This document shows positions 7,573-8,189 of a DNA stretch of 15,352 bases, one piece after another. Both the position numbers and the translations under genes were made by a program. The stretch covers positions 1-15,352 of IMG/VR virus record IMGVR_UViG_2558860274_000010. One strand, written 5' to 3'. Position 1 is the first letter of the stretch, and each line of letters begins with the position of its first letter. This stretch comes from a virus (taxonomy: Duplodnaviria > Heunggongvirae > Uroviricota > Caudoviricetes). The notes under the pieces are model-generated. The model saw only the letters and a list, made by a program, of their open reading frames with translations. It did no database searches and was not told the DNA's origin.

Positions 7573-7827
7573 TCGATGAATAAACAATACGAACTGGTTG
7601 TAAAATGAATATTTCTAACTGAAAAAACGTTCCATGAGGTAAGAAAAGGTCACAGGCAATCAATAACAGGACGTGATGAAAGACCCTTGCATTTGTGCGC
7701 TTTCTCTTTAGATAGCAGCAGATACTGAAAATCTGAGTTGTCGGGGAGTCAGGGATACAGCTGTGCAAGAGTTGGTCATTGTGATTCCATTGAAATCCTG
7801 TATGCCATGAAGGGCAGGATTTTATGG

Positions 7828-8142
7828 CTACCTGAGCTTTGGTGATAGTAAGTTGAAAATTCGCATTTTTTGCTGACATGCGTAACGAGAATCCCATAAG
7901 CAGGGAGGACTTAATTCTTCATTAACCCATGCGTTGATATTATGTTTCAGCCGTTGAAGCATCAGCGGTGTTAATGTTGTGGTAATAATATCCAGCGTTT
8001 TATGTGAGATCTTACCGTAAGGGTCTGCAAGAATGCTGCTTGTTGCTTCGTTATTATCTGCCATCAGAAGAAGTAACTCTGATTTAACGTTTTCTGTCAT
8101 TAGTTGTAAAAATCTTCTGCGCAAACTTTCTTTACTGTTCAT
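7828..8142 (-). CDS. hypothetical protein (104 aa) between holin and endolysin
   Basis: Minus-strand ORF in a ~600-bp AT-rich segment with no counterpart in canonical S-R cassettes. No obvious Shine-Dalgarno and no family recognised. Confidence 0.35.
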   Translation of the reverse strand: MNSKESLRRRFLQLMTENVKSELLLLMADNNEATSSILADPYGKISHKTLDIITTTLTPLMLQRLKHNINAWVNEELSPPCLWDSRYACQQKMRIFNLLSPKLR

Positions 8143-8181
8143 TTATATGGCTTCATTTGTTGTAATCTGCTGCGTCTCAAG

Positions 8182-8189
8182 GGATATGT
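8182..8189. repeat. IS66-family target site duplication, left copy (GGATATGT)
   Basis: An 8-bp sequence immediately outside the left terminal inverted repeat, identical to the 8 bp at 10632-10639. Confidence 0.8.

Follow-up and report, generated by a model that had tools for sequence, protein, structure and literature searches.

A conserved reverse-strand gene in the holin-endolysin gap of lambdoid prophages, probably a moron-type accessory gene

What is a reverse-strand open reading frame doing between the holin and endolysin genes of a lambdoid late operon, and is it a gene at all? The question is raised by the window studied here, that is, the whole 15,352-nt stretch of DNA that was analysed (positions 1 to 15,352 of IMG/VR record IMGVR_UViG_2558860274_000010), which represents the late region of a lambdoid prophage of the EHEC type. 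The original prediction treated the segment between the two lysis genes as a non-canonical insert and proposed that its 104-codon frame, here called ORF104, could encode a moron or a lysis-timing or immunity factor. We find that ORF104 has already been catalogued as a hypothetical protein and occupies a slot known to vary among lambdoid prophages; it is not a new kind of system. The features that bear on the question are as follows.

7366-7572, plus strand: class II holin gene of the phage 21 S type (PF04971, E 1.9e-32; annotated by PGAP as 'class II holin family protein' in identical loci)
7573-7827, plus strand: decayed remnant of a YdfR/DUF1327-family gene ('orf5' of Stx2 phage 86), 255 bp, with a large internal deletion
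7828-8142, minus strand: ORF104, 104 aa, ATG start and TAG stop, a member of PHROG 1853
8143-8189, minus strand: remaining native 5' leader of ORF104, 47 nt, with GAAG at 8151-8154 and the left duplication copy as its last 8 nt
8190-10631, plus strand: ISEc8 (IS66 family), 2442 bp, with tnpA, tnpB and a transposase gene (Pfam HTH_Tnp_1, TnpB_IS66 and DDE_Tnp_IS66)
10632-10709: rest of the native 117-bp divergent intergenic region, with the right duplication copy (10632-10639), a conserved TATAAT and an inverted repeat
10710-11243, plus strand: SAR-type phage lysozyme gene, R (PF00959, E 7.6e-24)

The holin gene is the last late-operon gene ahead of the insert, and the lysozyme gene is the next one after it. 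The layout first described held up well: without ISEc8 and one copy of the duplication, the holin stop and the lysozyme start are separated by 687 bp (617 + 70) at 39.2% GC, close to the 690 bp of AT-rich DNA that had been estimated, and the 104-aa frame does run against the late operon with its start divergent from that of the endolysin. An uninterrupted version of the locus is present in O55:H7 RM12579 (L001), with the holin at 4067-4273, the lysozyme at 4961-5494 and the same spacing as in the window; ORF104 is located there at NC_017656.1 2672728-2673042. PGAP annotates the gene order there as holin, minus-strand WP_000138558.1 and lysozyme; the lysozyme of the window is 100% identical to WP_001003118.1 of that locus, and the starts of ORF104 and the lysozyme lie 117 bp apart. 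ORF104 itself has a GC content of 38.4%, against 52% for the holin gene and 54% for the lysozyme and Rz genes.

The length of ORF104 by itself is weak evidence, suggestive of coding at most, as a frame of at least 104 aa arose in 3.3% of dinucleotide-preserving shuffles of 7573-8189 (n = 5,000). The comparative evidence was decisive. Full-length relatives of ORF104 are 104-106 aa long at 46-80% identity, keep both the frame and the start methionine, and have a C-terminal ...LS.KFR in common with it. Codon-level comparison of alleles (NG86) gave dN/dS values of 0.14-0.32, with synonymous sites near saturation; between the window copy and that of L051, for example, there are 25.5 synonymous and 24.5 non-synonymous differences (pS 0.40, pN 0.10). 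Because the frame is conserved and dN/dS is 0.14-0.32, we accept ORF104 as a gene, and these comparisons identify it as a real, conserved prophage gene under purifying selection. As a control for this coding test we used a 120-aa minus-strand frame that overlaps ORF104 (7535-7897); it has no family match, changes mostly at non-synonymous sites and carries a stop codon in L050, a 93%-identical relative, and we rejected it as a gene. A 57-aa plus-strand frame at 8033-8206, also without a family match, was likewise set aside.

PGAP begins the protein at M15 (8100), giving 90 aa, whereas M1 at 8142 gives 104 aa, beginning with MNSKESLR. The true start is most likely M1, since relatives conserve the length, and partly the sequence, of the 14 leading codons left out by PGAP, a GAGG-like site lies upstream, and the first helix of the structure model spans residues 3-26. 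Thus, the annotated start is probably 14 codons too short. Translation had been doubted because the gene appeared to lack a clear Shine-Dalgarno sequence. That description suits the window copy, in which an SD-like GAAG (8151-8154) stands 8 nt before the ATG, but not the relatives, which have a purine-rich GAGG or GAGGA 7-9 nt upstream of M1; the doubt over translation is in any case removed by the purifying selection.

The ORF104 product has a mass of 12.1 kDa, a pI of 9.3 and a GRAVY score of -0.33. It had been thought to belong to no recognisable family. This is true for Pfam, NCBIfam and PADLOC, in which neither ORF104 nor its relatives gave a match, even at E <= 5, across 13 family members; it is not true for PHROG, as hmmscan aligns residues 1-102 of ORF104 with positions 57-158 of the 159-position PHROG 1853 profile (E 3.5e-47, 161 bits). 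By sequence ORF104 is a member of this family, from which it differs in nothing; orf6 of Stx2 phage 86 matches the same profile at E 8.4e-50, and the family is annotated as being of unknown function. PF07041 matches the neighbouring orf5 (E 3.7e-45), the sole match in the pair, and does not match ORF104. Nor is the protein new to annotation, as the identical 104-aa sequence was recorded in EDL933 as 'unknown protein encoded within prophage CP-933O' and is listed by PGAP as WP_000138558.1, 'hypothetical protein'. A search of Rfam with positions 6900-8300 returned no match at E <= 1.

The prediction of a mostly helical product was borne out by an AF2 model, which has five amphipathic helices (pLDDT 91.7, pTM 0.82). 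The fold found no informative match in PDB or BFVD. A profile search against PDB sequences placed a designed helical protein at the top (E 0.008), a match that we judged to be meaningless. Read by eye, the sequence lacks long hydrophobic stretches as well as any membrane-spanning or signal segment, and on this reading the protein is most likely soluble and cytoplasmic.

The family is narrow, with only 21 representative clusters among 1.84 billion proteins, and all of its named members come from Escherichia or Salmonella (Salmonella enterica). The species-representative genomes of GTDB yielded no relative. At the DNA level, ORF104 is carried by 674 of 5,426 complete E. coli genomes (~12%), in up to three copies per genome, and 622 of those genome records match the window sequence at 99% identity or more, which makes this the commonest allele. 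Carriers among the matches listed include O157:H7, O103:H2, O111:H8 and O145:H28 strains; overall, the gene is found in many STEC serotypes, in Stx2-converting phages and in Salmonella prophages. In the searchable literature we found no paper that discusses the gene and no expression data for it; the lysis cassettes of Stx phages are described in PMC8136144, where ORF104 is not covered.

The insert is not the one-off that 'non-canonical' implied. Comparison of loci shows the gap between S and R to be a known polymorphic slot that usually holds a YdfR/DUF1327 gene. In Sakai Sp14 and Sp10 the order is holin, a 114-aa YdfR gene and endolysin, and ORF104 is absent from the slot. The proposed check, a search for the same frame between S and R in other prophages, succeeded, the examples including O55:H7 RM12579 and Stx2 phage 86. 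In the latter, as in Stx2a phage 12E129, the homologue orf6 is 53% identical and lies in the same place and in the same antisense orientation, with orf5 on the late strand between S and orf6 and the two stops 9-11 nt apart. The order holin, YdfR-family gene, reversed ORF104 homologue and SAR lysozyme recurs in the diverged loci whose lysis cassette is still intact (L003, L004, L052-L058, L063 and L064). In one Salmonella locus, L060, the YdfR/ORF104 pair lies upstream of the holin and not between holin and lysozyme; thus, the two genes behave together as a small cassette. In the same Salmonella prophage, two adjacent plus-strand frames (5600-6237 of L060) adjoin this cassette in the interval from Q to the lysis region; by eye they resemble a HicA/HicB toxin-antitoxin pair.

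The partner gene is still recognizable in the window as a relic. Positions 7576-7605, four bases beyond the stop of the holin gene, encode MNKQYELVVK and then a stop codon; the 10 residues are all identical to the N-terminus of P0124, a 287-aa DUF1327 protein (tblastn). What is left of the C-terminal domain lies at 7658-7780; it is broken by two in-frame stops and aligns with the orf5 C-domain at 41% identity over 41 aa (tblastn, E 1e-6 in a 281-bp target). The C-terminal LKGRI can still be traced at 7807-7821. The partner gene has lost about 600 bp. The original prediction allowed that the segment might be a degraded remnant of another gene; this is so for the spacer at 7573-7827 but not for ORF104, and these 255 bp should be annotated as a ydfR-family pseudogene. 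Intact members of the orf5/YdfR family consist of an optional N-terminal DUF1327 and a conserved C-terminal domain, phrog_1085, which in orf5 of Stx2 phage 86 covers residues 122-268. Beyond DUF1327 the partner has no PADLOC, Pfam or NCBIfam match, and an AF2 model of one member (P0066, from a 22-sequence alignment) reached a pLDDT of 48.

Rates of change differ markedly along the locus. Within the clade of window-type loci, ORF104 is the slowest-evolving segment, with a nucleotide divergence of 2.2-3.5%, compared with 5.9-7.8% for the remnant and 7.7-11% for the divergent intergenic region; the mosaic holin and lysozyme genes diverge by 12-26%. Between alleles, ORF104 is the most divergent protein, at 46-66% identity versus 55-77% for the orf5 C-domain; lysozyme identity between alleles in E. 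coli loci is 90-97%. ORF104 alleles do not closely track those of the partner, as in L004 versus L052, where ORF104 is 51% and the orf5 C-domain 76% identical. Two prophage remnants (L065 and L066, alleles P0007 and P0005) have an intact ORF104 and intergenic region beside a partial lysozyme gene, and contain no holin and no YdfR gene. This retention in remnants, together with the slow divergence beside a pseudogene, points to a function that is independent of the partner or of an active lysis cassette.

The IS element is foreign to the native locus. ISEc8 has gone into the divergent intergenic region, where its insertion duplicated the 8-bp target GGATATGT; the two copies are at 8182-8189 and 10632-10639. 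Its exact junction occurs in 0 of 5,426 complete E. coli genomes, and OkiPb01684 (L002, NZ_AP042519.1) has an ISEc8 of its own, inserted independently in this intergenic region at a distance of 67 bp; thus, the insertion in the window is recent and incidental to the biology of the gene. The immediate surroundings of ORF104 form a hot spot for IS elements, and the holin-endolysin gap as a whole is better annotated as a site of recurrent insertion and IS activity than as an anomaly. In L011, an IMG/VR prophage, two IS629-like copies (4444-5753 and 5885-7194), 96% identical to Sakai IS629, lie inside the ydfR-family remnant.

The element also separates ORF104 from the rest of its upstream region. 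A conserved minus-strand TATAAT (10665-10670), which in the native locus stands 73-78 nt before the ORF104 ATG with no convincing -35 element, is now 2.4 kb from the gene; ISEc8 lies between the two and comes within 47 bp of the ATG. Scans of the window, of L001 and of the diverged loci L003 and L055 called neither a sigma-70 consensus promoter nor an intrinsic terminator for ORF104, and no outward-facing promoter was found at the left end of ISEc8. Because the insertion has cut the gene from the rest of its upstream region, the copy in the window may be poorly expressed or silent. On the lysozyme side, an inverted repeat, GGGATT-N11-AATCCC (10683-10709; 4934-4960 in L001), lies directly before the lysozyme ATG, where there is no obvious Shine-Dalgarno sequence; it is partly conserved in window-type and other alleles and could affect the translation of R.

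We consider it probable that ORF104 is a genuine, translated accessory gene of the moron type, whose predicted product benefits the lysogen and is not a lysis protein. Of the labels in the original prediction, moron fits best: the gene is AT-rich relative to its neighbours, and it is present in some related prophages and absent from others. Under this proposal, ORF104 would be a self-contained accessory gene of Escherichia and Salmonella lambdoid prophages, set against the Q-dependent late operon and encoding a small, basic, all-helical protein. Ancestrally, ORF104 would have faced a YdfR/DUF1327-family gene tail to tail, the latter being transcribed together with the lysis genes; in the window allele the partner has decayed to a pseudogene while ORF104 was kept by purifying selection, which argues that its function does not depend on the partner.

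In lambdoid phages, a gene antisense to the Q-antiterminated transcript can effectively be expressed only when late transcription is off. As ORF104 is antisense to that transcript, its expression would most likely be driven by its own upstream region, either in lysogeny or in the early phase of infection. Autonomous transcription is thus a prediction, and one that the searches for a promoter and a terminator, which returned neither, count against. The protein would most likely act by binding a host or phage macromolecule to the benefit of the lysogen, for example in exclusion, defence or host modulation.

Known late-region genes offer partial parallels. Lambda bor is a reverse-oriented moron downstream of Rz, and lom is a further late-region moron, in the sense of the moron concept of Hendrix and colleagues; both encode envelope proteins for which lysogen phenotypes are known and promoters have been mapped. 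ORF104 resembles them as an extra gene of the late operon with odd base composition and a presence/absence pattern, and shares with bor its placement on the opposite strand. It differs in that its product looks cytoplasmic by eye and that no promoter or terminator was detected. YdfR/DUF1327 genes (K-12 Qin ydfR, Sakai ECs_2742 and ECs_1963) occupy the same holin-endolysin slot, but they are unrelated in sequence, lie on the other strand, where they are co-transcribed with the lysis genes, and are far more widespread. The antiholins S107/S21-71, P1 LydB and T4 RI are made together with the holin and are located in the membrane or periplasm. ORF104 is likewise found in or beside a lysis cassette, but it is antisense, has no membrane-spanning segment by eye and is retained where the holin is missing.

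The close tail-to-tail arrangement of ORF104 and the YdfR-family gene counts against the moron interpretation, as it could mean a coupled function that has been lost here. ORF104 might then be one half of a two-gene module, acting as an inhibitor, immunity or chaperone partner of the phrog_1085 domain, with the window copy left as an orphan. Wherever a diverged locus has an intact cassette, the two genes stand side by side and converge, their stops 4-21 nt apart; they have moved as a unit in the Salmonella locus L060; and a relic of the partner is still present in the window. However, the commonest allele, that of the 622 genome records, lacks the partner, and ORF104 is nonetheless the most constrained segment of its locus. 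It persists alone in L065 and L066, and the identities of the two proteins are only loosely coupled across alleles, as the comparison of L004 with L052 illustrates. Convergent transcription is also atypical of toxin-antitoxin or defence operons; the traits of such systems and of known defences, a component match and a co-oriented operon, were not found for ORF104 and its neighbour, and PADLOC returned no match. We regard a two-gene module as unlikely, though it is the main alternative.

A role in lysis seems improbable to us, and the suggestion of a lysis-timing or immunity factor found no support. An antiholin-like or anti-endolysin factor that tunes the pinholin or SAR endolysin, or guards the lysogen from leaky lysis genes, would fit the constant position of ORF104 beside a SAR lysozyme gene, usually with an S21-type holin, in both E. 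coli and Salmonella. Yet an orientation antisense to the late transcript of the lysis proteins precludes co-expression from pR', and the antiholin traits of co-transcription with the holin and of membrane association or export are not those of ORF104, which has no Pfam match, no membrane or signal segment by eye and a GRAVY score of -0.33. The gene is absent from close cassettes with the same holin and lysozyme, and intact where the holin is gone and the lysozyme truncated. Still harder to credit is a cis-acting or RNA element with the protein incidental, which would restrain read-through from S to R by way of an antisense transcript or transcriptional interference. The orientation against the late operon is compatible with this, and a transcript could run antisense into S, as there is no minus-strand terminator between the ORF104 stop and the holin; but low dN/dS with saturated synonymous sites indicates selection on amino acids, and neither an Rfam match at E <= 1 nor a promoter was detected. 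We give least credence of all to a chance frame in AT-rich junk or decaying prophage DNA. Frames at least as long arose in 3.3% of the shuffles, the window copy has a weak SD and no detectable promoter, and the adjoining DNA is a pseudogene. Against this, purifying selection has kept frame, start and length down to 46% identity across two genera, the structure is predicted with confidence, and the overlapping 120-aa frame behaves as a non-gene in the same test. The conserved frame and dN/dS refute the chance reading.

If ORF104 is expressed in the lysogen, an uncharacterised prophage gene found in about one complete E. coli genome in eight, and kept intact while adjoining prophage DNA decays, would join those with a possible influence on fitness or phage resistance in pathogenic E. 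coli. A bolder and more doubtful extension, which we offer tentatively, is that PHROG 1853 could represent a new class of small prophage effector, made in lysogens, of which many belong to STEC lineages, with a role in conflict (superinfection exclusion, anti-phage defence or host regulation) and possibly once a counter-partner of the YdfR-family C-domain. If true, this would explain why its alleles diverge far faster than those of the lysis genes (46-66% versus 90-97% identity) while remaining under purifying selection, as well as its survival amid the decay of neighbours and prophages and its recurrence beside the lysis cassette in two genera.

Beyond the lysis region, the window contains further features of the prophage.

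795-1160: RusA
1157-1711: Q-like antiterminator
2291-3340: DNA methylase
3390-3639: two tRNA genes, one with anticodon CAU (Met according to ARAGORN; Ile in related annotated prophages) and Arg-UCU
4336-4525, late-operon strand: STnc100 sRNA (full-length Rfam match, 130 bits versus a gathering score of 47)
13784-14374: TccP/EspFu-like effector with EspF repeats
14699-15352: EspJ-like effector

The tRNA genes of the window number two, versus three (Ile, Arg, Arg) in L001 and L002, and the STnc100 match lies downstream of them. A very AT-rich island follows at 4518-5100 (29-38% GC), which is missing from the otherwise syntenic O55:H7 locus L001 and contains a 122-aa minus-strand frame (4518-4886) without a Pfam match. 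At 5142-6919, an IS2-like orfA (5142-5552) is followed by a truncated orfB fused in frame to a DUF6645/SASA 'nanS-p-like' esterase. The fused part is the C-terminal two thirds (residues 218-616) of a protein whose O55:H7 relative is intact at 616 aa; where the 5' third of the esterase gene would be, the window has the IS fragment together with very AT-rich DNA.

Downstream of the SAR lysozyme are Rz/Rz1 and then a PerC-family gene. Synteny with the O55:H7 prophage, at 99.7% identity, ends at about 13380, after which the effector genes follow in place of terminase and structural genes; thus, the window prophage has either undergone a large deletion or has a different architecture. In Sakai Sp14, TccP/EspFu-like and EspJ-like genes lie beyond the tail-fibre genes.
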